Virus record (IMG/VR): IMGVR_UViG_3300050187_000003
Span: 11,576-75,575 of that record
Length of the DNA: 64,000 nt
Origin: a virus
Lineage: Duplodnaviria; Heunggongvirae; Uroviricota; Caudoviricetes
Strand: one strand, 5' to 3'
The position numbers and the translations under genes are program-made. Under the pieces are notes generated by a model that saw nothing but the letters and a program-made list of their open reading frames with translations, made no database searches and had not been told where the DNA came from. Shown in pieces: positions 13,339 to 62,553 of this stretch. The first letter of the stretch is position 1; each line of letters begins with the position of its first letter.

Positions 13339-13701
13339 TCAGTCCTCCTTCGGGCCGAGGATCAGCTCGGCCAGCTCGTCGCGCTTGAACGCGGACGCAT
13401 CTTCGAGGGTGAGCCGCTTCTCGCCGGCCGCCTCGCTGGTCACGAACGCGACCCATGCGTCCTTGGTCGCACCCCGGGCCGGCGGCTCGACCTGCTCCGG
13501 CTCGACCTGCTCGGCGGCGACCGGTACCGGCTCCAGGGTGGTGACCGGCTCGACGCGGTAGTCCTTGCGGCGGAAGTAGGCGAGGGCCTTACGTCCGGCC
13601 GGCATACCGTCATCGACGGTCGCCTCACTCTTGGCGAACGCGACCCCCGCGACGACGCCGGTGAACTCCGGCGTCGGAGTGGTGACCTTGAACAGCGTCA
13701 T
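13339..13701 (-). CDS. hypothetical protein directly downstream of major capsid (head decoration candidate)
   Basis: MTLFKVTTPTPEFTGVVAGVAFAK... The ATG overlaps the capsid stop (ATGA). Confidence 0.4.
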   Translation of the reverse strand: MTLFKVTTPTPEFTGVVAGVAFAKSEATVDDGMPAGRKALAYFRRKDYRVEPVTTLEPVPVAAEQVEPEQVEPPARGATKDAWVAFVTSEAAGEKRLTLEDASAFKRDELAELILGPKED

Positions 13702-14762
13702 CACTGCACCTTGACCTTCCGGAGGACACCGCACGCCTTGGTGTTCTTCAGCACCAGGGCGACCGGACCCATCTCGACCTCGTAGGTCTTGTTCGCGCCC
13801 GGCTCGTTCATGCGCGGCATGTACGTTTCGACCAACGGCTTGCCCGCCACGGCCGCACCGTGAAGCGCGTCCATGCCGAACGTCGCCGCGTAGATGTCGG
13901 TCAGGCCGGTGATGGTGCTGCCGCCTCCACCTTCGTCGGCGTCGGCCGAGTAGATCGATACGATCGGGCTGGAGCCCTGCACGCCGTTGCCGAGGTCGAC
14001 CAGCGCCCAGTCGCCGTAGCGCTGGATCCGTCGGCCCAGGTCGTCCTTGTCCTCGGTGTAGAGGCCGGCCCAGCGGGCGAGGGCCCGGATCCGGGTGACG
14101 CTCTTGGTGTTGCCGAGGAGTGCCTTCTCGCCGGGTGGAACGACGCCAGGAGTGCCCTGGTCGCCGCCGCCGGTCTTGGACGGGGTGATCTCGGCCAACA
14201 TCTCGTCGAGCCGGTCCAGGGCGGCCATCGCAAGGGTCTGGCTGACGATGGTGCCGATGGTCCAGTCGAGGTAGCCGGCCGTGACCCCGTTGTCGAGGGG
14301 GTCGTACTCGGTGGTCGTGCCGGTCAGGCTCTTGTCGAGGCCGTCGAAGCCGAGCGCATTCACGGCGACATCGCCGTTGATCAGCTCCTCCTGCGCCTTC
14401 TGCTGCACCCCGGTGATGAGCTGCTGCATCTGGAACGTGGCTTCGTTCGTGGCGGCCTGGCCGAGGTTGGCCAGCACGCGGTCGACGTTGAAGGATCCGC
14501 CGAGGGGCTTGAGGTCGACGGTGTACCGCTCGCGCGCGGCCTGCCCCGGGGTGTACTCGGCGTTGATCGCCCGGAACTCGGCCCCGCGGGGGGTCGTGAG
14601 TCGGGTGTAGCCGTAGGTAAGGGTCGAGCCGCCGGTGGGGTTGACGGTGTCGTCCCAGACGATGCGGTCCAGAAGCCAGGAGTACCGCCGCAGGTTGTCG
14701 ATGACTGCGAATGCGACATCGTCCTGCACGTTCACCTGGGCCTGGGCGAGGGTGATAGCCAC
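13701..14762 (-). CDS. major capsid protein (HK97-fold type)
   Basis: 353 aa, positioned after the scaffold gene. Sequence features are typical of HK97-like capsid proteins (N-terminal delta-like region, ...GNTKSVTRIRALARWAGLYTEDK..., C-terminal ...PVALVLKNTKACGVLRKVKVQ). Confidence 0.65.
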   Translation of the reverse strand: MAITLAQAQVNVQDDVAFAVIDNLRRYSWLLDRIVWDDTVNPTGGSTLTYGYTRLTTPRGAEFRAINAEYTPGQAARERYTVDLKPLGGSFNVDRVLANLGQAATNEATFQMQQLITGVQQKAQEELINGDVAVNALGFDGLDKSLTGTTTEYDPLDNGVTAGYLDWTIGTIVSQTLAMAALDRLDEMLAEITPSKTGGGDQGTPGVVPPGEKALLGNTKSVTRIRALARWAGLYTEDKDDLGRRIQRYGDWALVDLGNGVQGSSPIVSIYSADADEGGGGSTITGLTDIYAATFGMDALHGAAVAGKPLVETYMPRMNEPGANKTYEVEMGPVALVLKNTKACGVLRKVKVQ

Positions 14763-14790: not shown

Positions 14791-15414
14791 TTACTGCCCG
14801 TTGAGGCGGGCGGTGAGTGCGGCGCCGAGCGACGTGGGTCGCTGCCGACCGTTGTTGCCGCCGCCGTGGTCTGCCCCTTGGCGGGCCGGCCCTTGGCCTC
14901 CCGGGGCAGTGGCGGCGAGTTTCGGGTTGGCCTTGATGGCCTTCTTCATGGCGGCTACGACCTGGTCGTCGTAGTCGGCCGCCTCTGGGTCCAGCTCCTT
15001 GACGGTGTCGCGGAAGGTCGCGGAGTCGATGACGGCCACGGGGTCGGCGCCGGCCTTGTCGGCGTTCTCCCGTACGGCCAGCCTCAGGCTCTTGTCGCGG
15101 AACTTCTGGTCTTTCTGGTCCCGATCGGCTGCGGCGGTCTTGAGTTGTTCGGCCGGGTCTTCGTTGCCGCCGGGGGTGAGTCCGGCCGCTTTGAGGATCG
15201 CGTCGGTCCGCTCCTTGGCGGCCTTCGCCTCCGCCTTGGCTTTCTTCTCGGCTTCGCGGGCGGCGGCGATGCTGCGCTTGGCCCGGTCGGCGTCGAAGTC
15301 GCCATCGATCTTCGGCCCGTCGGCGGTGTCTGCGTCACTGCTGCCGGACTTACCGGCATCGTCGGAGCCTCCACCGTTGTCGCCAGGGTTGTCCGGATCA
15401 TCGTCGAGGTGCAT
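14791..15414 (-). CDS. capsid scaffolding protein
   Basis: 207 aa, highly charged and Ala/Lys/Glu/Asp-rich helical protein between the MuF-like and capsid genes. RBS AGGAGG upstream. Confidence 0.55.
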   Translation of the reverse strand: MHLDDDPDNPGDNGGGSDDAGKSGSSDADTADGPKIDGDFDADRAKRSIAAAREAEKKAKAEAKAAKERTDAILKAAGLTPGGNEDPAEQLKTAAADRDQKDQKFRDKSLRLAVRENADKAGADPVAVIDSATFRDTVKELDPEAADYDDQVVAAMKKAIKANPKLAATAPGGQGPARQGADHGGGNNGRQRPTSLGAALTARLNGQ

Positions 15415-15639
15415 CGATCGGCCTCCTTGAGGCGGTCGCGGGGTTGGGTGGTGCTTGCCGTGGCCTACCTTGAGGTCACGGAGACTCGTCGTCGGCCCGC
15501 GCGGCCGGGCCGACGCCCGGGGGCAGTGGGCGGTTCGGATCCACCGGCGGCCGGTGGTCGTAGCGTTGCGGCTGAGTGGGGGCGGCCTGTCGGCCCTGCG
15601 CCGACGTCGGCCGGTGACGGTCAGGATCAGCAGGGTTGG

Positions 15640-17544
15640 TCATGGTCGGGTCACCTCCACATCGACACGGCGGTACCCGTCCACCACACCATGATCGGCG
15701 ACCACGCGGTACCGCAGACCGCGCTCCAGCATGATTTCGGCCTCGGCGGCGACCTCGCGCGTGGACGCGTCGCCCAGGTCGGACAAGCGGATGGCGCCGG
15801 TGCCGCGGGGGACGAGGAGCCGCATCACGATGCCACCGCGGCCGGGCCCGCGTGGGTGGCCGAACCGTTCGGCGACGGCGGTGTCGGCGGTGCTGGATCC
15901 GTAGGCCCGGTCGGTCCACGTCCAGCCGGTGACGTCCTGGGTGGCCCAGTCCGCGCCGAACGCGGGGGTGGGTCGGAATCCGCGCTCGACGACGACGTCG
16001 CCGTTGAGGTGGGACGCGGCGAGGATGGCGTCCAGTGCGTCGACCTTCTCGGCGATCTCGGCGGTCGTGGCGGAGGCCCGGAGCTGGTCGTTGATGTCCT
16101 GGAACCAGGATCCGCGGTAGTCGGCGAGCGCGTAGGCGGCTGCCAGTCGGGGGCGGCGGTCGAGGCCACCGCCGAGGAGTTCGGGCGCTGGGCCGGTGGT
16201 GAGTCTGATCGGGGCGGTGTCCAGGGCTGCCTGGCGGGTGGCGGCGGCGGCGAACGGGTCGACTGGTGCGGGTGGCGGCGGGCGCGGTGTGACTGGTGCC
16301 GGTCGGGGCGGTGTGGGTGGCGTCAAGTCCTCGGCTTGGATGGGTGAGCCGGGTCCGCCGGTGAGCGGCCGGGGCTGCGAAACACCTGGGCCACCGGTGC
16401 GCGGGCCGGGGATGTTGCCGGCGCCGATCTGCTCGCGGTAGCTCAGCCGCTTCAGCTCGGGGTTGGCGGCGAGGTGCTTGCGCATCTCGCCCTGCCATGC
16501 GCGGACCTTCCCGCGTGCGCCCGCAGCGGCGGCCGGGTCCAGGGCGCTGGCTTCGCGTTCCTTCCACTTCCGGATGCCGCGCTCGATCTCGCGCTGCCGC
16601 TCCTTCGCCCGGTAGCCGTCCGGGTTCTCGGTCGGCCGAGTCGGCCGGCGGGTCGCACCGGGCAGAAACGCCCTGGCGGCATGTGAACAATTTGGGTGGA
16701 ATAGTCCAGCCGCGCGGGCCGCGGCCAGGCTGCCGGCGATGTCCACTGTGACCGTGCCGGCGCCCACCATCGAGGGCAGCTCCACCCGGCCCCGGATGCC
16801 GCCGGAGATGGAAAGGATCTTGCTTTCCCAGGGTCGACATTTTGGACATTCTCGGGGTGAATCGGACACGATGACCGTGTCCACACCGAGGCTGGTCAGC
16901 CGGTCCGTTTGGCCCTGCACAGCGGCCCGCTGCGTGACGGTCCGCGTGGCCATCTCCACATAGGAGGAGAGCCTCCACCGACGACCCGCGCTGTCGACGA
17001 AGGACGTGACACCCTGGTCGACCAGCCGCTGGTAGGCGTGCTGTGCGGCCTGCCTCCGGGTCTGCCCACCGGCGATGCTGACCGCGGTCGCCTGCTGGAT
17101 CACCTCGCGGTAGACGTCGAGCACGTGCCTGAGGACGTTGCTGTGCCGGGCCCCAATGTCGTCGACCAGGGCTGCGGCGAGGGACTCGACCGCAGCCACG
17201 CGGGGCACCTGCTGGATGACCGCGGCGAGCCGGCCCGCGTCCGGGTCACCGCGCAGCAGCGACGCCGGGAGGCCGACCGTGGCCAGGCCCTGCCCGGACC
17301 GGTAGGCGGCGGCGAGGGTGGACCGGATCTGGTCGGCGCCGGCCGCCTGGACGAGGCCGAGGACCCGCTCCGTTGCGGCGCGGAGGGTGGCCAGGGCGCC
17401 GAGTCGGGTGACGGCCCAGTCGGGTGCGTCCATGCCGGCCCGGAGCCGGCGGGTGATCTCCCGCAGGATCGCCTGCTCCGCCTCCTGGTAGAGACCGACG
17501 GTCGACGCCGTCACCGCTTCGATCTGGTCGCCGGTGAGCGCCAT
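15640..17544 (-). CDS. MuF-like minor capsid (head morphogenesis) protein fused to a C-terminal ADP-ribosyltransferase-like toxin domain
   Basis: MuF core segment ...RRWRLSSYVEMATRTVTQRAAVQGQTDRLTSLGVDTVIVSDSPRECPKCRPWESKILSI is followed by a Pro-rich linker. The C-terminal domain carries R/S/E-type ART motif candidates: YRGSW, YGSSTAD (STS-like) and AEAEIM (ExE-like). Confidence 0.55.
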   Translation of the reverse strand: MALTGDQIEAVTASTVGLYQEAEQAILREITRRLRAGMDAPDWAVTRLGALATLRAATERVLGLVQAAGADQIRSTLAAAYRSGQGLATVGLPASLLRGDPDAGRLAAVIQQVPRVAAVESLAAALVDDIGARHSNVLRHVLDVYREVIQQATAVSIAGGQTRRQAAQHAYQRLVDQGVTSFVDSAGRRWRLSSYVEMATRTVTQRAAVQGQTDRLTSLGVDTVIVSDSPRECPKCRPWESKILSISGGIRGRVELPSMVGAGTVTVDIAGSLAAARAAGLFHPNCSHAARAFLPGATRRPTRPTENPDGYRAKERQREIERGIRKWKEREASALDPAAAAGARGKVRAWQGEMRKHLAANPELKRLSYREQIGAGNIPGPRTGGPGVSQPRPLTGGPGSPIQAEDLTPPTPPRPAPVTPRPPPPAPVDPFAAAATRQAALDTAPIRLTTGPAPELLGGGLDRRPRLAAAYALADYRGSWFQDINDQLRASATTAEIAEKVDALDAILAASHLNGDVVVERGFRPTPAFGADWATQDVTGWTWTDRAYGSSTADTAVAERFGHPRGPGRGGIVMRLLVPRGTGAIRLSDLGDASTREVAAEAEIMLERGLRYRVVADHGVVDGYRRVDVEVTRP

Positions 17545-17548: not shown

Positions 17549-19165
17549 TCACTCCTCTACCGGCGGGCCTCCGCCTCCCTGCGGGTCGCCCGGGGGCGGG
17601 TTGTTGCCGGCCAGCGCACCCAACGCCGGGCCGACCTCCACCGTGGGCGGTGCGGCGTCGGCGATCCGGGCGACCTCCTCCCGGACCTGGATGTCGTCCC
17701 AGTCGGGGTGCACCATCCGCACGCGGGTCTCCGCTGAGACGGCCTCGGCGGCGTGGAGGAGTTGCAGGGTGCGCGCGACCGTCTCCGGCGTCTCACTGAC
17801 CGAGTCGCCGAACTCGACGTTCGGCCTGACCGGCTCCACTGCGGCGCCGAGCTGGGCGCGCTCCACGGCGAGGTGCAGCTCGACGTACTCCGCGATCGCC
17901 GGGCCCCAGGCGACGATCCGGTTGCCGCGGGTCGTGAAGCTCATGCGCTCGCGCGACTGGACCTCCGTCGCCGTCACCGCGACGTCGCCCTCGTCACCCA
18001 GGGTCTGCGAGGAGAGACCGGCGTGGCGCATCGCGACCTTGGTCAGTTCATCGATCGTGGCCCGGTGTTCTTCGACGCGGATGGCGAACTGGCTGATGGT
18101 GATGCCGGTGCCGCTGTCGGGTAGCGCGTTGACGGCGGCCCAGATTTCCCGTTCGGCGTCGAAGGTTGCGCCGGCACCGGGGCCGTTCGACTGGTGGAGC
18201 ATGTAGCTGGGGACGATGACTCGGCCGCGGCCGAGGCGCAGGTCCCGCATCCAGGACGTCCACGCCTCGTCGACCGCATCGAACCACTGCTCGGATCCGT
18301 CGAAGTCGCTGCGGCCCAGGTACTTCAGCATCGGCGCGGTGCGCCAGCGGCGTTGTGGGCCGGAGTTGGGGACGCGGACGACGTCCAGGCGATCGAGGCC
18401 GGTCGCCTGGCTGCTGTCCTGGTCGACATCCTCGGCGAGGTAGGAGGCGCCGTCGTGCTCGGTCAGCGGAATCGCGCGGCCGAGCTGGTCGGGGGTGCCC
18501 TCGTGGAGCTGGTAGACGATCCGGCCGACGCCGTTGATGACCTCGTGATGTTCAAGCAGGCGGACGACGGTGTTGCCGGAGCGGTCCAGCTCGGACCAGA
18601 AGGTGACGTCGATCAGCTTGCCCCAGCGCAGGTTTGGCAGGGCGCCGTCGGCGTGCACGACGCTGGGGAATGCTTTGTTCGACATCACCTCCTTGTCGAC
18701 GACCGGGCGGAGGTAGACGTCGCCGAGCACGCTGTTGGCCTCGGCAGCGTGCAACAGCAGGGAGTGCAGGCCGTCCTCGATCAGCTCATCGAGGCGGGTC
18801 TGAACCTCGGCGTCCTCGTGCGTGATCTGCGGCGGCTCGGAGAAGATCAGGTTGGCGACGGTGGCGGTGAGGTCGGCGGGGAGTGGGCAGTGCAGGCGGG
18901 CGTCGCGGGTGCCGACGGGTGGTGGGTTGCCCCACAGCCAGCGTGACAGGGTGCCGATGAGTCCGCCGGCGTACTGGCCGGCACGGACGCGTTCGCTTGG
19001 GCTGAGGGTGCGGTTGTTGGCTGCCCGGTTGAGGTACACCTCGCGGAGCCGGTCGGGGTCGCCGACGTACCACGCATCCCAGTCGCGGTAGGCGGTGTAG
19101 GCGGGTTGGTGGGCGGGTGGCGGCCAGGCGCCGCCGGTCGGGATCGGCACCGGGCCTCCATCCAA
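17549..19165 (-). CDS. portal protein
   Basis: 538 aa between the terminase large subunit and the MuF-like gene. Size and position are typical of a portal. Confidence 0.65.
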   Translation of the reverse strand: MDGGPVPIPTGGAWPPPAHQPAYTAYRDWDAWYVGDPDRLREVYLNRAANNRTLSPSERVRAGQYAGGLIGTLSRWLWGNPPPVGTRDARLHCPLPADLTATVANLIFSEPPQITHEDAEVQTRLDELIEDGLHSLLLHAAEANSVLGDVYLRPVVDKEVMSNKAFPSVVHADGALPNLRWGKLIDVTFWSELDRSGNTVVRLLEHHEVINGVGRIVYQLHEGTPDQLGRAIPLTEHDGASYLAEDVDQDSSQATGLDRLDVVRVPNSGPQRRWRTAPMLKYLGRSDFDGSEQWFDAVDEAWTSWMRDLRLGRGRVIVPSYMLHQSNGPGAGATFDAEREIWAAVNALPDSGTGITISQFAIRVEEHRATIDELTKVAMRHAGLSSQTLGDEGDVAVTATEVQSRERMSFTTRGNRIVAWGPAIAEYVELHLAVERAQLGAAVEPVRPNVEFGDSVSETPETVARTLQLLHAAEAVSAETRVRMVHPDWDDIQVREEVARIADAAPPTVEVGPALGALAGNNPPPGDPQGGGGPPVEE

Positions 19166-19212: not shown

Positions 19213-19479
19213 TCAGACGCGCGGCGGCCAGTGCCAGCTACCACCGGCCGGGGCGTCCGAATCGTCGAACGGCACCGACTGGTTGAAGAACAGGCCGGTC
19301 GGGTTGAGGACGCACAGGTCGACGTGCGGCACACCGTGCTCCGGCACCGGGTCTCCGTCGCGGACGGCGGTGACGATCGCGGCCCGGGGCTCCGAGGTGA
19401 ACGCCTGGGTGCCGTCCGGGCGTGGCGGGGTGCCGTGGCTGACGTATTGGACGATCCGGCCGACGGTCGGCTTCTGCAC
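19213..19479 (-). CDS. hypothetical protein (88 aa)
   Basis: Small ORF between the terminase large subunit and portal genes. Confidence 0.3.
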   Translation of the reverse strand: MQKPTVGRIVQYVSHGTPPRPDGTQAFTSEPRAAIVTAVRDGDPVPEHGVPHVDLCVLNPTGLFFNQSVPFDDSDAPAGGSWHWPPRV

Positions 19480-19495: not shown

Positions 19496-20785
19496 TCAGG
19501 CCGCGAGGGTGACGGCGCTCCGGAGCAGCGGCCGCCAGAGCACTTCGGGCGTTTTTATGGCATATCTAGCAGCATCGATGCTGTGGTCGTCTGCCTTGAT
19601 CGGGGCGTCTGAACCGTCCCGGTCGACGGCCTTGTCATCCCAGGCGTAGCCGGGGATCTCTTCGATCAGGCCCTTGCATGACTGGTGCACGCGGAGCTGG
19701 TCGTTGCCGAGCAGGCTCGACATGAGCCGGATCCCGTCGAGGACGGAGTTGTCGGCGGCCGCCGAGGTCATGCCGTCCTCGATCAGCTGGAGCCGCAGCG
19801 ACCGGGCGGACGGGTCGACAACGGTCCACTCCGGGGCCAGGCCGGTGAGCCCGGTCGTGCCGGGCACTTCCAGGGCGCCGAGCCAGCGGCGGAGTTCGCG
19901 GGAGAGGCCGCGGTCGGTGAGCTGGCGGCGGGCGATGGCCGGGTCGTGCCGCCACTCGTGGGTCAGGTAGAGCCGTCCGTCGCGGCCGGCGCCGAGGATG
20001 AGGGCGGCGGTGGCGTTGCGGGTGCCGTAGTCGATGCCGATGCTGATCCAGCGGTGGATTTCCGGCAGGACTGGGATGACGTGGCGGTCTTCGTCCCACA
20101 TGTCGAAGACGGCGCCTTCGGCCTGGACCCAGTTGCCGAGGATGAACCGCTTGTACCACAGGCCGACGTACTCGATCTTGAGGTCGGCGACGTACGCGGG
20201 GTCGAGGTGCGGGTTGTCGTCGAGGGTGCTGTGCCAGGTACGCAGGTTCAGCTCGCCGACGCGTTGCAGGTACTTCTTGCGGAGCCAGTGGGCTGGGCTG
20301 TCGGGGTTGGTGGTGCCGAACAGCTGCGCGCCGGCCACGCTCAGCCGGGCGAGGACCTGGGTGAAGAACGCCTCCGGGATGGTGGTCAGTTCGTCGCCGT
20401 AGGCCAGGCACAGCGTCATGCCCCGGACCTTCGGCTCCGCCTTCGCGTCGTTGGCGCCCAGGACGTCGACCTCGCGGCCGAGGATGGTGCCGGTGGGTGC
20501 GCCCGTATTGTACCTGGTCAGCCTGGCCAGGGGGCCGAACAGGGCCGGGTCGGTGAGCACGGAGAACACGTTTCGGTTGACGGCCTCGCGGGTCTTGCCG
20601 AAGAGCAGGACCCTGCCCGATGTCGGCGCGGCGGCGACGGCGAGCAGGAACCGCAGCAGCGACGCGACCGTCTTGCCGGACCTGACCGAGCCCTGCCAGA
20701 TGTTGAGGCGGGCCGTGGACTCGACCACCGAGCGGAGGTGGATCGGGGACAGCGACCGGGTGACGACGTCGAGGTCAACCGGCAT
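19496..20785 (-). CDS. terminase large subunit
   Basis: Walker A WQGSVRSGKT lies near the N-terminus, with the ATPase and C-terminal nuclease-type regions after it. The likely start MPVDLDVV... is internal to ORF 19496..20869, which would otherwise overlap the small subunit by about 95 nt. Confidence 0.65.
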   Translation of the reverse strand: MPVDLDVVTRSLSPIHLRSVVESTARLNIWQGSVRSGKTVASLLRFLLAVAAAPTSGRVLLFGKTREAVNRNVFSVLTDPALFGPLARLTRYNTGAPTGTILGREVDVLGANDAKAEPKVRGMTLCLAYGDELTTIPEAFFTQVLARLSVAGAQLFGTTNPDSPAHWLRKKYLQRVGELNLRTWHSTLDDNPHLDPAYVADLKIEYVGLWYKRFILGNWVQAEGAVFDMWDEDRHVIPVLPEIHRWISIGIDYGTRNATAALILGAGRDGRLYLTHEWRHDPAIARRQLTDRGLSRELRRWLGALEVPGTTGLTGLAPEWTVVDPSARSLRLQLIEDGMTSAAADNSVLDGIRLMSSLLGNDQLRVHQSCKGLIEEIPGYAWDDKAVDRDGSDAPIKADDHSIDAARYAIKTPEVLWRPLLRSAVTLAA

Positions 20786-38664: not shown

Positions 38665-38924
38665 CGGCTGGTTTCCTTCCATGCGGCGGGACGGCAATAG
38701 CGGAGCCACATTGCGGCCGGCAGCAGCGCCGCCAACCCGACAACCAGGCCGGGCGCAGGGAAACCGGCCAGTACGGTCAGCAGCCCGGACACGGCCAGGC
38801 AGCCGGTAGAGGCCAGCCACAGGCGACCCTCAGCGGGCCGTCCGGCCTCGAAGAATCCGCCGAGTGACGTCAGGATGCCGGCGGCCAGCATGGCGACTGC
38901 TGCGGCGGTGAACGTGAACGTCAT
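38661..38924 (-). CDS. small membrane protein (3 predicted TM segments)
   Basis: MTFTFTAAAVAMLAAGILTSLGGFF...LAVSGLLTVLAGF...LVVGLAALLPAAMWL. Confidence 0.35.
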   Translation of the reverse strand: MTFTFTAAAVAMLAAGILTSLGGFFEAGRPAEGRLWLASTGCLAVSGLLTVLAGFPAPGLVVGLAALLPAAMWLRYCRPAAWKETSR

Positions 38925-40036
38925 GCCGGCACCGCCACGACCGCGGCCGGGAACTCGTCCCACGTGCGGCCGTCCAACTCGCGGCCAGCACGCCCTCTGA
39001 CGACCCGCCACGGCCGGTCCCGGTCCCACGCGCTGGTGCCATTGACGACGTCCCAGTCCATGAACGTGTCGGCGGGCATCTGCGATGGCGGTACGTGATC
39101 ACCCCACTGCTTCAGGAAAAAGGGGGTGCCAGCGGCGGTCACCTGGTCTCGTAGGTCGCGTACCCAAGCGAGTTCCATCGGCCGGGACTTCGGCCCGGTC
39201 TCACCGCCGACGACAACCCAACCCAGGCTGGCCCGGCGCTCCCATGCCCCTCCGACGCGCTCCATGCCATCGATGTGCGCGCCATCCGGGGCGTCCAGCA
39301 GCGGATCGGTGACCGGCCGCGTCCACGCTAGGTGTTCGCTCAGGTCGACGTGCCCGAGTAGCGGCTCCATCGACAGCCACCGCACAGCAGCCGGGGTGCC
39401 CAGCAGTGCCGGGATACGCAGGTCGGCGGTCTTCTGATCCTCCACCGACACACCCACATGCAGATTCGGCAACGGCCAGCCGTGGATCACTGATTCGATC
39501 TGGTCCCACAGCACGGCGTTCTTCCGGCGCTGGTACTCGGCGGCCACCCGGCGGGGGACCTGCACCCCGTCGACCTCACCGGCTGCCAGTAGGTACGCCT
39601 GGTCGAGAACCTGGATGCGGAACGATGGCGAGTTCAGCAGCGATCGCATCCGACAGTGCCGCTTCGTCAACAGCTGAAAAGTGTGCTGCGGCGCCATCGC
39701 CATGACGGCGAACACCTGGGCGATGAAGGTCTCGGGGACGTCCTTGTGGAACAGGTCGGACTGCGAGTTGACGAAGATTCGCTGCGGTTTGCGGACCTTC
39801 AACGGGTCGGCCAGACGGCCCGGGAGGAGGTTGATGCGGCCGGTCCAGTCGAGGCGTCCGTCGCGACGTTCGGTGAGCCCGGCGAACGCGGTGGAGATTT
39901 TCGGGTTGGGGTGGCCGGCTCGGATGGTCGCGGTGTTGATGGCGTAGCAGCCGTCACATCCGGCGGACACGCGTTCGCAGCCGAGTAACGCATTCCATGT
40001 CAGATCGGCCCATTCTATGCGGGTCTGGGTGCTCAT
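38921..40036 (-). CDS. phage Gp37/Gp68-family protein (DUF5131-like)
   Basis: MSTQTRIEWADLTWNALLGCERVSAGCDGCYAI... is the conserved N-terminus of this family. 371 aa. Confidence 0.55.
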   Translation of the reverse strand: MSTQTRIEWADLTWNALLGCERVSAGCDGCYAINTATIRAGHPNPKISTAFAGLTERRDGRLDWTGRINLLPGRLADPLKVRKPQRIFVNSQSDLFHKDVPETFIAQVFAVMAMAPQHTFQLLTKRHCRMRSLLNSPSFRIQVLDQAYLLAAGEVDGVQVPRRVAAEYQRRKNAVLWDQIESVIHGWPLPNLHVGVSVEDQKTADLRIPALLGTPAAVRWLSMEPLLGHVDLSEHLAWTRPVTDPLLDAPDGAHIDGMERVGGAWERRASLGWVVVGGETGPKSRPMELAWVRDLRDQVTAAGTPFFLKQWGDHVPPSQMPADTFMDWDVVNGTSAWDRDRPWRVVRGRAGRELDGRTWDEFPAAVVAVPA

Positions 40037-44336: not shown

Positions 44337-44527
44337 GACCGCTCACCACCGGCCGTGTCACGAACGAACTGGGGCAGGTCGTTGCCGACGACGTCGCGGT
44401 ACGCCTCGGCCATGCCCCGATAGCGGACAGCCGTAGCGACATCGAGTGTTTCCCACGCTTCCCGTGCCAGCCGCTCATAGGTGCGCTGCTTCGCAGTGAT
44501 TTGTGCTGCGAGAGGTGCCAGGTTCAC
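44333..44527 (-). CDS. hypothetical protein (64 aa)
   Basis: ORF, coupled to its neighbours. Confidence 0.25.
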   Translation of the reverse strand: MNLAPLAAQITAKQRTYERLAREAWETLDVATAVRYRGMAEAYRDVVGNDLPQFVRDTAGGERS

Positions 44528-45624
44528 GACGCCACCTGCGTCTTCTTGGCTTCTTCCATCGCGCCCAGGAACCGGCGCATGTCATCCGCCGACGCCTCAT
44601 CCGACGACCTGCCCACCAGTTGGCAGAAGCTCCGCTCCAACTCGGCCTTGTCATCCCACGGCGACTCCGCCAGGATCTGCCCCCACAGGCTGTCCAACTC
44701 GTCGACCACCACCGCGTCCACCGGGGCGACCGGACCAGGCGAGGACGAAGCAGGTTGGGCTGCTCGGATCGCCGCCGCCTTCTGCTCGAACATCACCCGC
44801 AGATCCGCCGGGATCTCCCCACCGTGCGAACCCTTCACCTGCTCGGCCAGCCCATACAGGGCGTTCAAGTTCTTCGCCGCATCGATCAGCGACGGGTAGT
44901 CCACTGCGGCGGCGATCGCCGTCCGGACCTCACCCGCCACCGCCGCGCTATTCCGGGCCGCGATCAGGTCCTGCACCCGGCCGGACATCAACTGCTTCGG
45001 CGTCAACGCATCCACATGCAGCGTCGGCACCGCGAAGTTGAACGTCTTCGCCTCACCGTTGACCTGCCGGGTTACCGTCCGCTGATCCAGCACGAGCCGG
45101 GCCGGGATCGCCCCTTGCGCCATCGCCAACAACTGGGCAACACCAGGCAGCTCGACGGCCGCGTAGTAGGAGCCGGTGTCGACCCGCCACGCGCCCAAGC
45201 CGGGAACGTCTTCCAGCATCACCCGCAGCCGGGTGTGCATCTTGCAGTCCCGCGCCTCCGGGTCACACAGGCACGCCGACTTCGTGATCTTCTCATGCTG
45301 GCCATCGCAGCGCCGCAGACAGCCGCCCTTCGACCACATCTCGTACCACTGGTTGTCGGACGGGTCCTGCGGCGGCACCACCACCGGCACCTCGCTGGTG
45401 TTGGTGATGACCTGCCACTGGCCGGCACCCTTCGGCGGCTGCCACGGCTGGACGGAGCCGCCGTACAACTCGGCGATCCGCTCGATCAGCGCCTTCCGGG
45501 GCGAGGTGAACCGGAGCCGGTCCAACTTGCCCGGCCGGGTCTTGCCGCTCGCCGTCTGAACGAGGACACCGAGCCGGATACGGCCGACCTCGGTCTGCTG
45601 CTGTTGGAGCTGAATGATCGGCAT
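44524..45624 (-). CDS. hypothetical protein, candidate recombination partner (SSAP-like by synteny) of the adjacent exonuclease
   Basis: 366 aa. N-terminal beta-rich region with a Cys cluster (GGCLRRCDGQHEKITKSACLCDPEARDCKMH). Directly downstream of the Cas4-like exonuclease, with start/stop overlap. Function is inferred from position only. Confidence 0.35.
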   Translation of the reverse strand: MPIIQLQQQQTEVGRIRLGVLVQTASGKTRPGKLDRLRFTSPRKALIERIAELYGGSVQPWQPPKGAGQWQVITNTSEVPVVVPPQDPSDNQWYEMWSKGGCLRRCDGQHEKITKSACLCDPEARDCKMHTRLRVMLEDVPGLGAWRVDTGSYYAAVELPGVAQLLAMAQGAIPARLVLDQRTVTRQVNGEAKTFNFAVPTLHVDALTPKQLMSGRVQDLIAARNSAAVAGEVRTAIAAAVDYPSLIDAAKNLNALYGLAEQVKGSHGGEIPADLRVMFEQKAAAIRAAQPASSSPGPVAPVDAVVVDELDSLWGQILAESPWDDKAELERSFCQLVGRSSDEASADDMRRFLGAMEEAKKTQVAS

Positions 45625-51054: not shown

Positions 51055-51276
51055 CTAAAAGGGACCCCGGGCCGGGTCCGGGCGACGCCGAAACCTCACG
51101 GGAGTCGGCAAAGAAACCGGGGCCGCCGGATCGGCGACCGTGCCCGTGGCGGCGTACCGCCACACATCAAGGCAGCCGACACGACCATCGACATGAACCC
51201 AGCCGTCAGAAGCACGAGTCGCCGACCGTCCACAATGGCGACATACGTCGATCACCGGCCGCATCAGGCAGCCCAC
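51055..51276 (-). CDS. possible small zinc-ribbon protein
   Basis: CRHCG...C motif. Weak. Confidence 0.2.
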   Translation of the reverse strand: MGCLMRPVIDVCRHCGRSATRASDGWVHVDGRVGCLDVWRYAATGTVADPAAPVSLPTPVRFRRRPDPARGPF

Positions 51277-52208
51277 CCATCCAGCAGAGACAACTGCCCG
51301 ATCTCGCCAAGCCCCCGGGACAACGACGACGCCTGCGTGGACAACGCCTGCTCACGCCACGTCAACGCCCAACGGAAACAGTTCCGACAGTCCGTCTCCC
51401 GGCGCAGCCCTGTCACCGGGTGCGGCCTTGACAGATGCCGGCAGCCCGGACGCATCACCTGCTCATCGCGGGCAACCTTCGACCAGGCTTGGCTGTCCGC
51501 GGTGGACAGCAGATGCCCGGCAACCCGCAGCGCGTTGATAGACACGCCGAAACCGTGCAGTCGCATTCCCAAACCGAGTTCGGCGATGGTGCCCAACACA
51601 CGGGCCACCCCCGTCTGCGAACCACGCCGGCACACCGACCCGACGCCGACCCGCAATCCGGCCAGGTCGACCCCGTTCTGCCGGTACATGTCGACGTGGG
51701 CGACGTACTCCCACGGATGCCAGCCCTGCAAGGTGGGCAGCCAGTTGATGAACGGAAACTCCTCGGCCAGATAGCAGTAGTTCTCGACCGTCAACTCCTG
51801 GTGCTCCCGAACCGTTTTCCCGGTGCGGGCGAGGACCTGCGGCTCACACGGCCAGTCCTGGATGCCAACAAAGTCGGGCATCAACTCCCGCGAGCTGTGG
51901 CCGACCGCCTCGGTGAAGTCGACCCACATCGACCCGTAGTCGTCGGGCCACCGCCTCCACGGGTGATCCCGCCGGCCGTTGCTCAGCATGAGAGCGGCGT
52001 ACGAGTCGCCAGCCCACGGGGTGCCGAACGTCTGCACGGGCCAGTCGTCGCCCTGCCCCTCGTAGACGCTCCTGTATTTAGCCAGGGTGGTGGCGGAGAT
52101 GAACAGCGGCACGGGGGAGTCGCGCAGGTGATGCGGATGCCCGACGCCCAGGTAGAAGCCGAACCGGCACGGACGTCCCGGCTGGGCAGGCGAACACTCC
52201 CTGCTCAT
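51264..52208 (-). CDS. tRNA-guanine transglycosylase (TGT)-superfamily protein, DpdA-like candidate
   Basis: FGFYLGVGHP...PLFISATTL...LHGFGV... plus a C-terminal Cys/His cluster (PGCRH...DCRNC) resembling the TGT zinc site. Confidence 0.4.
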   Translation of the reverse strand: MSRECSPAQPGRPCRFGFYLGVGHPHHLRDSPVPLFISATTLAKYRSVYEGQGDDWPVQTFGTPWAGDSYAALMLSNGRRDHPWRRWPDDYGSMWVDFTEAVGHSSRELMPDFVGIQDWPCEPQVLARTGKTVREHQELTVENYCYLAEEFPFINWLPTLQGWHPWEYVAHVDMYRQNGVDLAGLRVGVGSVCRRGSQTGVARVLGTIAELGLGMRLHGFGVSINALRVAGHLLSTADSQAWSKVARDEQVMRPGCRHLSRPHPVTGLRRETDCRNCFRWALTWREQALSTQASSLSRGLGEIGQLSLLDGWAA

Positions 52209-53844: not shown

Positions 53845-54273
53845 ATGACGGGCAACTTCACCGACTCGTACTATCGCCCCATGACACACGCACGCGATAC
53901 CGGCGGAGTTGACACTCCCGGACGCCGCTTCGCAGTACTCATCTCAGACGCACGCAGCCGCGCGGGCATGACCCAGGAGCAACTCGTCGACGTCTCCGGT
54001 GTCACCCGCCAGACGATCATCAGGTACGAGTCCGGGCGGGCAGTCAACCCCAAACCACTCGACGTCCGCGCAGTTTGCCTCGCACTCGGACTGCACCCCC
54101 GCGAAGCGGCCATCGCACTCGGCTACTGCACTCGCGAGGAAATGGGAGCAGCCACACCATCAGACCCCACCACCGACGAGGTCACAACAATCCTCCAAGA
54201 CACACGCATCCCAGACACAGACCGACAATCCTGGATCCAGTACCTGCGGTACCTGCACAACAAAGCCAGCTAA
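53845..54273 (+). CDS. cI-like XRE-family repressor
   Basis: GMTQEQLVDVSGVTRQTIIRYESG is an HTH. Plus strand, adjacent to the integrase and divergent from the Cro-like gene. Confidence 0.55.
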   Translation: MTGNFTDSYYRPMTHARDTGGVDTPGRRFAVLISDARSRAGMTQEQLVDVSGVTRQTIIRYESGRAVNPKPLDVRAVCLALGLHPREAAIALGYCTREEMGAATPSDPTTDEVTTILQDTRIPDTDRQSWIQYLRYLHNKAS

Positions 54274-55727
54274 ACAGCAAGCCCCGCTGGGGAAACAAGG
54301 CCGTCGCTCCGCCACCGCTCACCCCACGTCACGTCATCGCCACGCCACCGCGACCGGGCCAGCCTCCACACCGACCACCTGCCACCCTTGCCGACCTGAC
54401 CTAACACCAGCGGATCAACCAACGCGCGGATGAACTCCCGTCGGACCCCCACCGGCAGCGACCCCCACCGGCCAGGCACGTCCACGCCCGCGTACTCAGC
54501 CAACACCGGCGGCGTCGACAACACCTCAACCCGCCGCTGCACGGATTCAATCTGCGGAACCAACTTCGACTCGACCGCGGCCAGCGACGCCGCCGAGATC
54601 GGCGAATCCGGGTCAGCCGCCTGCGCCACGAACTCGGACAGCCGATCCTTCAGCCGCCGCAACTCGGCCAGAGCCTCATCGAAGTCCTCCCGCTTCTGCG
54701 GAGGCGCGAACACCCTGGCCGCCGCCGGGTCCTCCAACCTCTGCCTGATCAGGTAGTCCACAGCCGGCTCAATGTCGGACACCCGCACCGACACCCCCCC
54801 GCATCCCCGACGGTGGCAGACGTACCGGGTCGAACGCAGGGTTCGCAACACCCCGCCGCAGCAGCCGCACACCGCGGCCCCGGACAATTCGTGAGCGAGC
54901 GCCGAATCCTGATGATGTCGACGGCCTGGCGCACGCAACAACGCCCGCAGACGGCACTGTTCGTCCTCCGACAGCAGAGCTGGCCACAGCCCATCAGACA
55001 CAACAACACCGTTGTGGACCCGCTTCGCCGCATAGCCGGGGTTGAGCAACAGTCGGGCAATCCCGTGCCCGGTCCACTGTCCGCCCTTCGGGGACAGAAT
55101 TCCCCTCCGGTTGAGGGATTGGGCCTGCGAGTTGAGCGATACCCCCCGCATTGTGTCCTTAGCCAGACGCCGAACCAGGTCCGCCCGGTCCGAGTCCAAG
55201 ACCTGCTCGACCAGATGTCCGCGTTCGTCGTAGACACGGGTGTAGCCGTACATCAGCGGTCCAGGTGGTTTCCCCCTGACCGCCAGGTCCCGTGCGCCGT
55301 CACGGGCGCGTTGCGCGATCACCTCCGACTCCCGTTCCGAAATCATGCCCTCGCGCATCAGCGCCTCACGGTCGCGCTGCCTACGGGGGTCGTAGGTTTC
55401 CGGGTCGCCGCCGAATACCCGGATCAGGGTGCCCTTCTCCCTGCACAGGTCGAGCAGCGCCACCCAGGGGCCCATCTCGCGGGATCCGCGGCTGGTCTCC
55501 CACAGCGACAGCATCCGACAGTGCCCGGAGCTGATGTGTTTCAGCAGGGCGGTGTAGTCGGGTCTTGTCTTGCGGGCGTATCGGGACGCGGACAGGTCCG
55601 GGTCGCACCATGCCCGACCTGGGGTGAGGTTTTCGCGGTCGCAGTCGGCGAGCCAGTCGCGTTCCTGGCGTGCGACGGATCGACCTGCGTCGGCGGTGGA
55701 TTTCCGTAGGTATGCGTCGGAGATCAC
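54270..55727 (-). CDS. int: large serine recombinase (serine integrase)
   Basis: N-terminal resolvase catalytic domain (AYLRKSTAD...R), a recombinase domain, and a Cys-rich zinc ribbon (CGCCGG...CHRRGCGG) with a coiled-coil region. Confidence 0.75.
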   Translation of the reverse strand: MISDAYLRKSTADAGRSVARQERDWLADCDRENLTPGRAWCDPDLSASRYARKTRPDYTALLKHISSGHCRMLSLWETSRGSREMGPWVALLDLCREKGTLIRVFGGDPETYDPRRQRDREALMREGMISERESEVIAQRARDGARDLAVRGKPPGPLMYGYTRVYDERGHLVEQVLDSDRADLVRRLAKDTMRGVSLNSQAQSLNRRGILSPKGGQWTGHGIARLLLNPGYAAKRVHNGVVVSDGLWPALLSEDEQCRLRALLRAPGRRHHQDSALAHELSGAAVCGCCGGVLRTLRSTRYVCHRRGCGGVSVRVSDIEPAVDYLIRQRLEDPAAARVFAPPQKREDFDEALAELRRLKDRLSEFVAQAADPDSPISAASLAAVESKLVPQIESVQRRVEVLSTPPVLAEYAGVDVPGRWGSLPVGVRREFIRALVDPLVLGQVGKGGRWSVWRLARSRWRGDDVTWGERWRSDGLVSPAGLAV

Positions 55728-56595: not shown

Positions 56596-56808
56596 CTAAC
56601 CAGACGGCCGGGACGACAACTCCCCATCCACCGCCCGCAGCAGCGCCAACGTCAACTGGCCGGCCTGGGCCGGCGACGCCGCACCCTTCGGACCCGGCGT
56701 GTCGAACGTACCGGCAGCGAGGTGGGCGGCAACCAGGTCTAAGCCGGCCAGCAGATTGGCCCGCACCTCCTTCAACGCCGCCACCGGCACATGCCCCAAC
56801 CCGGTCAC
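56596..56808 (-). CDS. small protein (70 aa) translationally coupled to the upstream nucleotidyltransferase
   Basis: Its start overlaps the NTase stop. Sequence is helical. Confidence 0.3.
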   Translation of the reverse strand: MTGLGHVPVAALKEVRANLLAGLDLVAAHLAAGTFDTPGPKGAASPAQAGQLTLALLRAVDGELSSRPSG

Positions 56809-57485
56809 GCCGCGTCCAGGTAGGCGACACGCACCCGGCGCAGAAAGTCCACCACCCGCGCCCGATCCGGTACAGCCGGCAACACACTCGCCGTCGCCCC
56901 GAACAGCGCGTCCTCCCGCTCGTACACCGCCAGCATCTGCTCCGACGACATGTCGTCGAACGCGAAGTAGTCGTCGGGGTCGCCGACATGGACTGTCAGG
57001 ACACCGGTCGACAGCAGTTCACGGCCCGACCGCAGCAGCCGAAGAATGTGCCTCGCATGCTTCGTCGTCCGCTTCCGGGTATCAGCGCTGAACGAGCCGT
57101 CACTGCGGCCCGCCAACCGGGCGGCCTGCTGCCGGGCGTACCCGCCGTACGCCGACTTCACCACCTGTTCGGAGAGGAACGCCGACCGCATCCCGACCAA
57201 CTCGGCGCCGAACCGGGGGTCGACGGTTTCCAGCAGCGCCGGGGGTAGGTGCAGCAGTTCGGTGATCGTCGGGTTGCACTTCAAGGCGAGCCGCAGGTAC
57301 TTGCCGACCTCGTGCAATGTCGAGTCCGGCTTGGTGGTGACGAGGGTTTCGCGGGTGCCGTGCCAGTCCAGGCCGGCGACCTCGACGGTGGGGGCGACGA
57401 AGACCCCCAACCTGTCGACGTCGGAACCTTCCCGGGTCAGCCCGTAGGCGGTCGACCCGACGACGCCCTCCAACAGCACGCGCAT
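56805..57485 (-). CDS. nucleotidyltransferase (Pol-beta superfamily, minimal NTase fold at N-terminus)
   Basis: GSTAYGLTREGSDVDRLGVFV matches the GS...DxD NTase signature. A helical domain of about 130 aa follows. Confidence 0.5.
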   Translation of the reverse strand: MRVLLEGVVGSTAYGLTREGSDVDRLGVFVAPTVEVAGLDWHGTRETLVTTKPDSTLHEVGKYLRLALKCNPTITELLHLPPALLETVDPRFGAELVGMRSAFLSEQVVKSAYGGYARQQAARLAGRSDGSFSADTRKRTTKHARHILRLLRSGRELLSTGVLTVHVGDPDDYFAFDDMSSEQMLAVYEREDALFGATASVLPAVPDRARVVDFLRRVRVAYLDAA

Positions 57486-57499
57486 GTCAGAAGTCTACG

Positions 57500-58037
57500 T
57501 CCGCGCACAGCCACCCACAGGAACGCCCTCCGCGATGCCGCCATACTCGGCATGCTCGCCGAGCTCGGTCTGCGTGTCGGTGAGGCCCTGCGTCTCGACC
57601 TGGAGTCGATGCGACACAACCGCGGACACCGCACCGTCCGCGTGACCGGCAAGGGCGGCCAGCAACGGGAACTGCCGATCCCGGCGCCGCTCGGGCGGGC
57701 CCTGGACGCGTGGCTGGCGGTGCGCGGCGACCAACCCGGGCCGCTCTTCGTCACCAGCAGCGGCGCCTGCGTCGACCAGCCGGCCGCGTTCCGCATGGTC
57801 CGCCGGGTCGCCAAAGCCGCCGGACTGCCGAACGCCGAACAGCTGAGCCCGCACTCGCTGCGGCACACCGCAGCGACTGCCGCGCTCGACGAGGGTGCAG
57901 CACTCCGCGACGTCCAGGACATGCTCGGCCATGCCGACCCGCGCACGACTCGCCGGTATGACCGGTCGCGGGGTTCGCTCGACCGAAGCCCCGCGCATCT
58001 GCTTGCCCGGCTGTTCGCCGACGACGGCGAGGGGTGA
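57500..58037 (+). pseudogene. N-terminally truncated tyrosine recombinase (catalytic domain only)
   Basis: ...HRNALRDAAILGMLAELGLRVGEALRL...HSLRHTAAT...LGHADPRTTRRYDR carries the R..HxxR..Y catalytic motifs. No core-binding domain is present, because the upstream frame is antisense to the NTase gene. Confidence 0.5.
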
Positions 58038-58186
58038 CCACCCCTTCCCGTTTCGCTCAGCGACCGTGACCATCCCGGTCCGGCCGTGGAACGGGAAGGG
58101 TCTGCGCGCCGCGCCTTCGGGGGTACGCAAGGTGCCGACTCTCGCTCTCTTGTTGATCTTATTCATCGATGCACGAGGGGGGTACA

Positions 58187-58353
58187 AGGTGTACATGTAC
58201 ACCTGTCCCCCTCGGACCCCGAGAATCGGTTACGCGGAGTAGTCGGCCGACAGCACGCCTGACCTGCGTAAATATAAGTTGATGTTGAAAACGGGGGGAC
58301 TTTCAAGATACGGATGCATGGGTGGCAGGGGTACATGTACACCTGTACACCCC
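58187..58353. repeat. two copies of the 16-mer GTACATGTACACCTGT (the first inside the 18-bp perfect palindrome AGGTGTACATGTACACCT) flanking an AT-richer stretch
   Basis: Seen directly at 58191-58206 and 58331-58346. The first copy is embedded in the roughly 41-bp imperfect palindrome CGAGGGGGGTACAAGGTGTACATGTACACCTGTCCCCCTCGG. Confidence 0.5.
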
Positions 58354-58377
58354 GCGTACCCCTCGCTCCTGACGTGG

Positions 58378-59811: not shown

Positions 59812-60641
59812 CAGGCTGGCTGCCGTTCGCGGTTGAGCGCCTGGTCGACGGCGTGGGTGAACGCGGCCGGGCCGAGCTGGGTGTACAGGTCGCGTGCGTC
59901 TTGGCCGTTTGCGGGCCACAAAACTGCGGGGTTGAGCCCGGCGGCCACGAGCCGTTGGTAGGCGCGGCGGCCGGCGGGGTCGTGGTCGGGGACGTGGACC
60001 AGCCGCCGGTAGTTGCCGAGCAGGCGTGCGAGTCGGGCGGTGGGTATGGTCGCCGCTGACCCTGCCCAGGTGGTGGCGTAGATGCCGCGTAGTGCGTCGA
60101 CTGACGATTCGGATTCGACCAGCACCACCGGTTCGTCGAGGGCGACGGCCTGCCGTATCTCGGCCTGCCGGTAGATCGGCAAGTCGGCGAGGCTGACACC
60201 GATGAGTCCGGGAACCAGCCCGCCGGTGGGGGTGCGGGTCTCCCACAGCACCTCTTTCGCCCCAGCCTGGTTACGCCACCTGAACAGCACGGCACGGACG
60301 TAGTCGTGTTGGGCGACCAGCCGGAACCCGCGTGACGCCGGGCTACCCGTCCGCAGGACGACCGGCGGAAACGCGACGGCCAGCCGGACCATGGCGGCGT
60401 AGTCGCCGGGGGTCATGCGCGGCGGGGTGTGGAGACGTGCGGGTGCGCACCGCAGCGCGGCCAGGATTTCGTCCAAGCTGCAGCCGGCAAAGCAGCGCAG
60501 CACGACCTGCCCGGTGCGGCCTTCCCGTACCGACAGGGACGGTGAGCCGTCGCGGTGGGCCGGGCACTGCCGGATCTTGCCGCCGGTCGGCTGGCTTCCT
60601 GCCTGGTCGAGCAGGGCGGACATCCACCGGTAGGCGTTCAT
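59811..60641 (-). CDS. DnaG-like primase (CHC2 zinc finger + Toprim)
   Basis: CPAHRDGSPSLSV is a CHC2 primase zinc finger. Toprim Glu at PVVLVESESSVDAL and the DxD at VPDHDPAG. Confidence 0.55.
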   Translation of the reverse strand: MNAYRWMSALLDQAGSQPTGGKIRQCPAHRDGSPSLSVREGRTGQVVLRCFAGCSLDEILAALRCAPARLHTPPRMTPGDYAAMVRLAVAFPPVVLRTGSPASRGFRLVAQHDYVRAVLFRWRNQAGAKEVLWETRTPTGGLVPGLIGVSLADLPIYRQAEIRQAVALDEPVVLVESESSVDALRGIYATTWAGSAATIPTARLARLLGNYRRLVHVPDHDPAGRRAYQRLVAAGLNPAVLWPANGQDARDLYTQLGPAAFTHAVDQALNRERQPA

Positions 60642-61281: not shown

Positions 61282-61515
61282 AGACTCGTGCTCCTGATGA
61301 GGTGGAGTGGGGGTCGGCGGTGGCGGTGTGCCGGGGGTTGGTGCCCCGGCCCCGCTTTTTTCGTGCTCATGCGGCGTCTCTCACTGCCCGCTGGCGCATG
61401 ATCCCGACGGGCAGGTCCGGACGCAGCAGGACTGCGAGTCGGATGCGCAGTGCCGGGCTGAGTGGTGGCCGCGGAATCGGGTTCGCCCGGACGTAGGCCC
61501 GGATCTCGTCGCGGG

Positions 61516-62480: not shown

Positions 62481-62553
62481 CAGCCCGATCGACCTCCACA
62501 TGGCCACGACAGCCCGCCGGTCATCGACCACAAACGCCACCTCGTAGACGCCT

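Follow-up and report, generated by a model that had tools for sequence, protein, structure and literature searches.

Known MuF fusions and a new actinobacterial example

MuF has been described as a toxin-trafficking domain (Zhang et al. 2012), and MuF toxins, the EFV toxin with its ADP-ribosyltransferase (ART) among them, have been defined (Jamet et al. 2017, PMC5576092). Fusion to MuF is found in many Alt/VIP2 ARTs, and the MuF-fused ARTs have been placed in the Alt/VIP2 family (Iyer et al.). A MuF-ART fusion has also been reported in Microbacterium phages Percival, Goodman, and Johann (Jacobs-Sera et al. 2020, PMC7302621), and a 2024 study of Bxa described arginine ADP-ribosylation, toxicity, and two immunity proteins, while stating that what MuF toxins do biologically is not known (PMC11699363). 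Here, we analyzed a MuF-ART fusion gene at 15640-17544 (minus strand) of a 64,000-nucleotide stretch of the Caudoviricetes record IMGVR_UViG_3300050187_000003 from IMG/VR (positions 11,576 to 75,575 of that record; hereafter, the window). By sequence, fold, and context, its product belongs to the MuF superfamily (MuF2 type), to the R-S-E clade of ARTs, and to the MuF polymorphic-toxin class. MuF-ART fusions are thus already known, and this gene is an ordinary, well-supported further example, which adds an actinobacterial, temperate-phage, MuF2-type representative to the class.

The closest described systems share the architecture of this locus and differ from it in specific ways. The EFV toxin of an Enterococcus faecalis V583 prophage likewise combines MuF with a C-terminal ART on a lysogenic phage, and ART activity and yeast toxicity are reported for it as cited in Jamet et al. 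2017 (PMC5576092); in that account its N-terminus is MuF1 (PF04233) and its host a member of the Firmicutes, whereas the window protein carries PF06152. Percival gp4 and the corresponding proteins of Goodman and Johann link a minor capsid protein of MuF-like type to a VIP2-like ART and are predicted virion components (PMC7302621), as is the window protein. These phages are lytic and belong to clusters EH and EJ, whereas the window prophage is temperate. The Percival protein was a structural match of our ART model (E = 1e-8); its ART was not recovered by tblastn at E ≤ 0.01, the sequence being too distant. For Bxa, encoded by the Bacteroides stercoris prophage PhiBxa, homologues of the N-terminal domain carry other toxins and small open reading frames (ORFs) follow the gene, as here (PMC11699363). 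The two loci differ because no ARH or Macro family was detected in the window: genes for an ARH1-type ADP-ribosylhydrolase that confers immunity (BAH) and for a protein inhibitor (Bsi) flank Bxa, whereas the window gene is followed by a 55-aa Pro-rich ORF only. In addition, the Bxa host belongs to the Bacteroidota rather than the Actinomycetota, the N-terminal domain here is PF06152, and activity has been shown for Bxa and is predicted here.

The C-terminal domain is an R-S-E ADP-ribosyltransferase

The gene at 15640-17544 (stop codon included) starts with ATG and encodes 634 aa on the minus strand; the plus-strand reading of the same interval is full of stops. A first-pass annotation of this DNA had proposed the gene without stating its strand, and we found it to be a real coding gene on the minus strand. 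GC content at codon positions 1/2/3 was 0.73/0.55/0.88 in the N-terminal part and 0.75/0.54/0.89 in the C-terminal part. We consider the 634-aa ORF to be a real gene because the third-position GC (GC3) of both domains (0.88-0.89) equals that of the neighboring portal and capsid genes. The identical 634-aa protein (P0001) is also called in an independent public assembly (Logan).

The first-pass annotation had described the last roughly 180 aa as ART-like. We found a real R-S-E ART domain of 175-180 aa, VIP2/C3-like, at aa 456-634 (15643-16179, minus strand). Pfam family PF03496 (ADPrib_exo_Tox) matched aa 472-614 with 33.7 bits in the full protein and 38.1 bits in the isolated domain, above the gathering score of 23.4. 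The PHROG match of the C-terminal part was to an ADP-ribosyltransferase exoenzyme toxin (E = 4e-4), and NCBIfam returned no meaningful match. We then modeled aa 439-634 with AlphaFold (AF2) from an alignment of 28 homologues and obtained a confident structure (mean pLDDT 89.2, pTM 0.86). Foldseek with this model gave 137 PDB matches at E ≤ 1e-3; the best 50 of the 137 were all ART toxins, one of them an ART-ARH toxin-immunity pair, with TM scores of about 0.6-0.66. The top match was VIP2 (1qs2, E = 7e-11), followed by C3bot1, CDTa, the Listeria ART-ARH toxin, Certhrax, C3larvin, iota Ia, and Vis, and the probability was 1.00 each for VIP2, C3bot1, CDTa, Certhrax, and iota Ia. Viral fold matches included a "Head morphogenesis protein," the Microbacterium phage Percival ART/MuF-like fusion protein, and an "Alt RNA polymerase ADP-ribosylase." A family profile built from 38 diverse homologues matched Vip2 chains in the PDB at E = 1e-21, and the single ART sequence gave only marginal Vip2 matches by phmmer (E = 0.7). 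VIP2, C3, iota/CDTa, and Certhrax thus have the same fold and the same R / S-T-S / E-x-E architecture, at an identity to the window ART of only 15-20%. They are secreted, as binary or stand-alone toxins, and act on eukaryotic actin, Rho, and similar targets, whereas the window ART is tethered to a head protein.

The profile alignment to VIP2 identified the active site, pairing "VyRG" with "VYRW," "ayvSTt" with "GYMSTS," and "EaElLL" with "EKEILL." The catalytic Arg is R521 (VVERGF; 15982-15984, minus strand), which aligns with the Arg of VIP2 "VYRW." The STS-type motif is S550-S551-T552 within YGSSTAD (aa 548-554; 15889-15897, minus strand), aligned with VIP2 "YMSTS," and the ExE motif is E601-A-E603 within AEAEIML (AEAEIM at aa 600-605; 15736-15744, minus strand), aligned with VIP2 "EKEILL." R521, S550, and E603 were invariant in the 28 MuF-ART homologues; across the wider set of 38 homologues, R521 and E603 remained invariant and S550 was at least 90% conserved. 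Across the ART family, position 601 is usually E or Q. The first-pass annotation had proposed YRGSW, YGSSTAD, and AEAEIM as R-S-E candidates; the latter two are the true motifs, and the Arg of YRGSW (R477) is not the catalytic one. R477 lies in the N-terminal helix motif Y..IN..LR, aligned with VIP2 "YARQDYKEINNYLR," and its position varies (R/Q/T/A/E). Because R477 varies and aligns with the VIP2 N-terminal helix, we assigned the catalytic Arg to R521. As read from sequence, the active site R521 / S550-S-T / E601-x-E603 is intact and the domain is a predicted mono-ADP-ribosyltransferase, VIP2/C3/Alt-like. Both an ART fold and a catalytic triad, on whose absence the first-pass reading would have fallen, were found, so that reading stands. 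The resulting active-site map (R521, S550, E601, and E603) is available for mutagenesis.

When the isolated ART domain was used in a word-indexed homology search, there were no matches. An exhaustive HMMER search with the same domain returned 1142 cluster representatives at E ≤ 1e-3, many within proteins of 1000-3400 aa, and the domain is therefore common rather than an orphan. The only annotated phage records with detectable sequence similarity were gp10 of Streptomyces phage Marky and its relatives (1112 aa, "ADP-ribosyltransferase"), at 29-31% identity. Marky gp10 also has its ART at the C-terminus, and its gene lies in the head region, behind those for the portal and the protease. A Pfam scan of Marky gp10 revealed no MuF domain, and its carrier is different from, and much longer than, that of the window protein.

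The N-terminal domain is a MuF2 head protein

The N-terminal part of the protein matches PF06152 (Phage_min_cap2, "MuF2") at aa 3-358 (16471-17538, minus strand), with E = 2e-71 and 241 bits over 365 of 366 profile positions. PHROG matches were to head morphogenesis and minor head protein families (phrog_12049 at E = 1e-104, and a second at 8e-91). PF04233 (MuF1) was absent from the Pfam matches of the 634-aa protein even at E ≤ 1, so we assigned the domain to the MuF2 type rather than to the Mu F/SPP1 gp7 (MuF1) type. PF06152 is the MuF2 branch of the same MuF superfamily as PF04233 (Jamet et al. 2017, PMC5576092). The first-pass assignment to the Mu F/SPP1 gp7 family was thus right about the superfamily and one step too specific about the family, and the check it proposed with hidden Markov models, PF04233 plus ART families, yielded PF06152 in place of PF04233 together with PF03496 above its gathering score. 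We hold the identities of both domains, MuF2 and ART, to be practically certain.

The MuF2 domain model is mostly helical, with block-mean pLDDT mostly at 73-92 and a low-confidence loop at aa 100-114. The CPKC motif that had been noted in the first pass is present at aa 233-236, with C233 and C236 invariant among 32 homologues. It forms part of a larger Cys/His cluster, C233-P-K-C236 ... H283-P-N-C286-S-H288 (16681-16848, minus strand), in which H283, P284, C286, and H288 were also invariant in the same homologues. Because the residues of this C-x-x-C ... H-P-x-C-x-H pattern are invariant, they suggest a possible zinc or other metal site in the MuF2 domain. We know of no discussion of such a cluster in MuF proteins.

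Between the two domains lies a conserved junction followed by a variable linker. The junction motif REQIGAGNIP (aa 370-379; 16408-16437, minus strand) has an invariant R-E-x-x-G-x-G-x-x-P pattern (R370, E371, G374, G376, and P379), and MuF2 homology breaks sharply at GAGNxP, near aa 378. The first-pass annotation had seen a Pro-rich linker before the C-terminal domain, and indeed 23 of the 77 residues at aa 379-455 (16180-16410, minus strand) are Pro. The length and sequence of this Pro/Ala-rich linker vary between homologues. A full-length AlphaFold model consisted of two confident modules separated by a segment, aa 366-426, with pLDDT of about 30 (<50), and the linker at aa 379-455 is probably disordered. 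The core of the first-pass reading, a MuF-superfamily head protein with a Pro-rich linker and a C-terminal ART-like domain, is thereby borne out by profile searches, structure model, fold comparison, and the VIP2 profile alignment.

Cargo domains are exchanged on a constant MuF2 scaffold

We compared the full protein with its best 120 homologues, which came from Micromonospora, Salinispora, Actinoplanes, Solwaraspora, and others. Up to the junction at about aa 378, identity in the N-terminal domain amounts to 60-88%. Past this point, 49 of the 120 homologues end within 2-4 residues, and 68 extend by at least 150 aa; the ART was detectable by BLASTP in only 27 of these 68, with other cargo in the remaining 41. 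In the relatives closest by N-terminal sequence (88%, 86%, and 77% identity), the ART is missing and the extension is different or absent. After the junction, a homologue may end or may go on into an ART, a PI3/PI4-kinase-like domain, a GNAT-like domain, or one without annotation. The PI3/PI4-kinase-like segment occurs on the MuF2 protein of Micromonospora phage pMLP1 (P0014; L001 4001-5944), and P0002 and P0044 have a common GNAT-like domain with an RGKGFASEF motif. When we scanned nine non-ART extensions, only the pMLP1 kinase-like domain gave a confident Pfam match.

The cargo module is exchangeable on the MuF2 scaffold, and a constant MuF2 combined with variable C-termini is what typifies a polymorphic effector system built on a conserved trafficking domain. 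A recent foreign insertion of the ART module was also considered and rejected: in codon-position GC the module does not differ from the remainder of the gene, so composition shows no sign of insertion. The MuF2 relatives with no cargo, ART, kinase-like, or GNAT-like domains offer a compact natural test set for enzyme delivery and for the roles of the small ORFs described below. More speculatively, MuF2 of the Micromonosporaceae might be a general cargo-delivery platform on which each cargo has its own translationally coupled mini-ORF, the 55-aa peptide being a new, non-enzymatic ART inhibitor or chaperone inherited together with this ART subtype; we offer this tentatively and regard it as rather doubtful.

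Two further observations were made among these homologues. Non-ART extensions such as those of P0002, P0013, P0022, P0038, P0041, P0044, P0045, and P0059 may be uncharacterized phage-delivered effectors. Separately, an intein (PF14890) is inserted in the MuF domain of P0040, P0084, P0108, and P0109.

A small downstream ORF changes with the cargo

Directly downstream of the fusion gene is a Pro-rich ORF of 55 aa (15476-15643, minus strand) whose ATG overlaps the MuF-ART stop codon (ATGA); a small ORF (<150 aa) in this position is characteristic of MuF polymorphic toxins. The ORF is called as a gene in the Logan assembly. Its product carries the motif YDxRPPVDPxRPLPPGVGP, has no Pfam match, and is 70% identical (tblastn E = 9e-21) to the products of ORFs that follow the two closest ART subtypes, P0003 and P0006. 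The counterpart at locus L007 has a coding-type GC3 of 0.90.

We examined this position at 12 loci, the window included. A stop-overlapping ORF was present at 9 of 9 extension-bearing loci, with a weak candidate (48 aa) at L012, an ART locus, and no such ORF was found at the three extension-less MuF2 loci of this set (L009, L010, and L013). In the relatives, these ORFs lie at about 4853-4993 in L003, 4341-4517 in L007, 4725-4844 in L004, 4872-5045 in L005, 4552-4809 in L008, 3408-3668 in L011, and 5937-6161 in L001 (pMLP1). The 55-aa ORF itself is not universal after MuF-ART genes, as it is kept only with the closest ART subtype and others have unrelated mini-ORFs. Downstream of distant ART subtypes we found unrelated acidic ORFs of 39 and 57 aa; after the pMLP1 kinase-like gene comes an ORF of about 74 aa, again unrelated, and the GNAT-like-cargo genes P0002 and P0044 are followed by ORFs of 85 and 86 aa that are homologous to each other. 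Because the small ORF changes along with the cargo type, the 55-aa ORF is a candidate immunity partner, and it is our best candidate for neutralizing the enzyme in the producing cell. We see the pairing of cargo domains with mini-ORFs across the clade as the most useful by-product of the analysis.

The fusion gene lies in the head module of a temperate prophage

We called 83 genes over the 64-kb window with our own GC3-based procedure, nearly all of them on the minus strand. Around the fusion gene, the order is terminase large subunit (19496-20785, minus strand; PF03237 and PF04466), an 88-aa ORF, SPP1-type portal (17549-19150, minus strand; PF05133, E = 1.7e-5), MuF-ART, the 55-aa ORF, a scaffold-like gene, and the major capsid gene (13701-14762, minus strand). 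The portal gene lies directly upstream of MuF-ART; its end at 17549 and the start of MuF at 17544 are separated by 4 nt. The order terminase/portal/MuF/scaffold/capsid is kept in 11 related loci. The scaffold-like gene (14791-15414, minus strand) encodes a charged, helical protein of 207 aa without a Pfam match; we infer a scaffold from its position and from its homology to the ORF that occupies this place in pMLP1, the two sharing a C-terminus "...KANPKLAATA...GRQRP.SLGAALTARLNGQ." The major capsid protein gave a weak match to PF20911 (GP7), and the same family was matched in the relative L003. A Pfam scan of the head module detected no protease family among the genes from terminase to capsid, and by gene content the module looks SPP1-like, without a protease.

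Tail genes come next (a tail terminator, DUF7426, and a tape-measure-like gene). The other arm encodes DnaB, a DnaN clamp, two WhiB proteins, a DUF5131 protein, DpdA, a Gp3-like recombination directionality factor (44524-45624, minus strand; PF18897, E = 7e-40), and a large serine recombinase/integrase found in the Pfam scan (54270-55727, minus strand). The presence of the serine integrase and the Gp3-like directionality factor indicates that the phage is temperate. Homologues of the MuF2 protein sit in bacterial chromosomes of 5-10 Mb, and among annotated relatives Micromonospora phage pMLP1 is the closest, with 76.5% identity limited to aa 1-378. Judged from these genes and relatives, the source is a temperate siphovirus-type prophage of a Micromonosporaceae-like actinobacterium.

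Proposed mode of action and alternatives

We favor, with moderate confidence, a mechanism in which the MuF2-ART protein is packaged, ejected, and ADP-ribosylates host proteins early in infection. Among MuF proteins, portal binding at low copy number is known only for SPP1 gp7, with 1-2 copies per capsid; by analogy, the MuF2 module (aa 1-378) would attach to the portal and bring one or a few copies into the capsid. The fusion would be packaged as cargo, its ART tethered by the disordered linker, and would be ejected with the DNA into the next host. For this delivery route of capsid packaging and ejection, taken by itself, we see the chances as roughly even. In the new host, the ART would use NAD+ to ADP-ribosylate proteins early in infection, and host arginines are the suggested targets because the motif is of the ExE type. 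Such modification could serve host takeover, counter-defence, or a bias of the lysis-lysogeny outcome, and the product of the 55-aa mini-ORF would protect the producing cell.

T4 Alt is an R-S-E ART that is packaged in the phage head, injected at infection, and directed against RNA polymerase. Both Alt and the window protein are phage R-S-E ARTs, and Alt-family proteins match our ART model structurally. Alt is not fused to MuF; it is a prohead-targeted protein that the T4 prohead protease processes, whereas no protease gene was detected in the window head module. For want of such a protease, a cleaved C-terminal fragment, which the first-pass annotation had expected in virions, is unsupported here. 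Literature searches brought up no virion proteomics of MuF-ART fusions and nothing on pMLP1.

Several points weigh against the favored mechanism. Virion presence and injection are steps that we infer from the domains and their context; packaging and injection of MuF fusions, which the first-pass annotation had given as fact, are a published proposal, and MuF delivery is still a hypothesis in the literature (PMC11699363). If the analogy with SPP1 gp7 holds, 1-2 copies per capsid would be a very small dose of enzyme. The middle catalytic motif is S-S-T and not the canonical S-T-S, and neither substrate nor residue specificity can be read from the sequence. The candidate partner is 55 aa long, Pro-rich, and probably disordered, is conserved only among the three closest loci, and has ambiguous codon statistics in the window (GC1/2/3 = 0.82/0.64/0.79). 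Finally, a Pfam scan for antidotes, in which 20 of the 83 called genes of the window were run one by one and the other 63 joined into concatenates, detected no ARH, Macro, or NADAR family at E ≤ 1e-3 to 1e-2.

The second model of Jamet et al. 2017 (PMC5576092) is the basis of an alternative in which the protein is a polymorphic toxin for bacterial competition: phage released by the lysogen population would deliver a MuF-ART that poisons or arrests non-immune competitors when they are infected, and lysogens would be protected by the small ORF. Delivery is the same as in the mechanism we favor and the purpose differs, since the recipient is harmed rather than replication helped. Polymorphic C-termini on a conserved N-terminal trafficking domain, a small ORF that switches with the cargo and is missing when the cargo is missing, a temperate phage, and a published framework all fit such a toxin, and Bxa is bactericidal and requires immunity proteins (PMC11699363). 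On the other hand, the small ORF sits in the late (head) operon with no indication of expression in lysogens, a virion would have to intoxicate a cell with one or two enzyme molecules, and the toxicity of the window protein is itself putative. We consider this alternative unlikely.

The enzymatic step of the favored mechanism, protein modification, could also be replaced by another activity, with the ART domain acting as an NAD+ glycohydrolase that depletes the NAD+ of the recipient. ART-fold NAD(P)+ glycohydrolase toxins such as Tne5 exist, and many R-S-E ARTs show background NADase activity. The closest relatives of the window domain (VIP2, C3, CDTa, Certhrax, ExoT/S, and Vis), however, are protein or small-molecule transferases, and a few molecules per capsid are poorly suited to depleting NAD+, which makes this reading highly unlikely.

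We find it very improbable that the protein is a lysogen fitness factor or exotoxin, released at lysis and acting extracellularly or on eukaryotes like Bxa, with MuF a mere evolutionary carrier. Bxa does modify host epithelial proteins and promote gut colonization (PMC11699363), and the VIP2, C3, and iota-type relatives attack eukaryotic cells. The window protein, however, has no signal peptide, binding component, or translocation component; with relatives in Micromonospora, Actinoplanes, and Solwaraspora, its source is apparently a soil-type actinomycete; and the gene lies within the head operon, translationally coupled on either side. That the C-terminal domain is a catalytically dead remnant serving as structural decoration is scarcely credible, as nothing specific beyond the non-canonical S-S-T motif speaks for it, and R521, S550, and E603 are conserved across divergent homologues (25-60% identity) in a domain with normal coding statistics and a confident fold.

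Other features of the prophage

The serine recombinase and the Gp3-like directionality factor of the prophage form a phiC31-like integration/excision pair. Past the serine integrase, 56596-63845 appears to be the remnant of a second mobile element; it holds an RlaP nucleotidyltransferase, a DUF3987 protein, a Toprim-like protein, a partial C5 cytosine methylase, and a truncated tyrosine integrase (57552-58037, plus strand). The DpdA homologue (51264-52208, minus strand; PF23859, E = 7e-43) suggests 7-deazaguanine DNA modification, and the DUF5131 protein is encoded at 38921-39970 (minus strand; E = 5e-70).

The slot between terminase and portal is variable among the related loci. In the window it is occupied by the unannotated 88-aa ORF (19213-19479, minus strand), whose product ends in WPPRV and is weakly related to that of the L003 ORF in the same slot (E = 7e-4); the L003 ORF in turn matches the one in L007. 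Relatives carry in this slot a Tad2-like gene (L005 864-1139) or an Acb2/Tad1-hairpin gene (L008 147-407), both of anti-defence sponge families. Between MuF-ART and scaffold, three related prophages have an inserted reverse-strand lipoprotein gene that looks like a moron and is absent from the window (L003 4999-5394, L004 4832-5242, and L005 5042-5413, all minus strand); its product has the lipobox LAGCG, with a DUF732 domain in L005.

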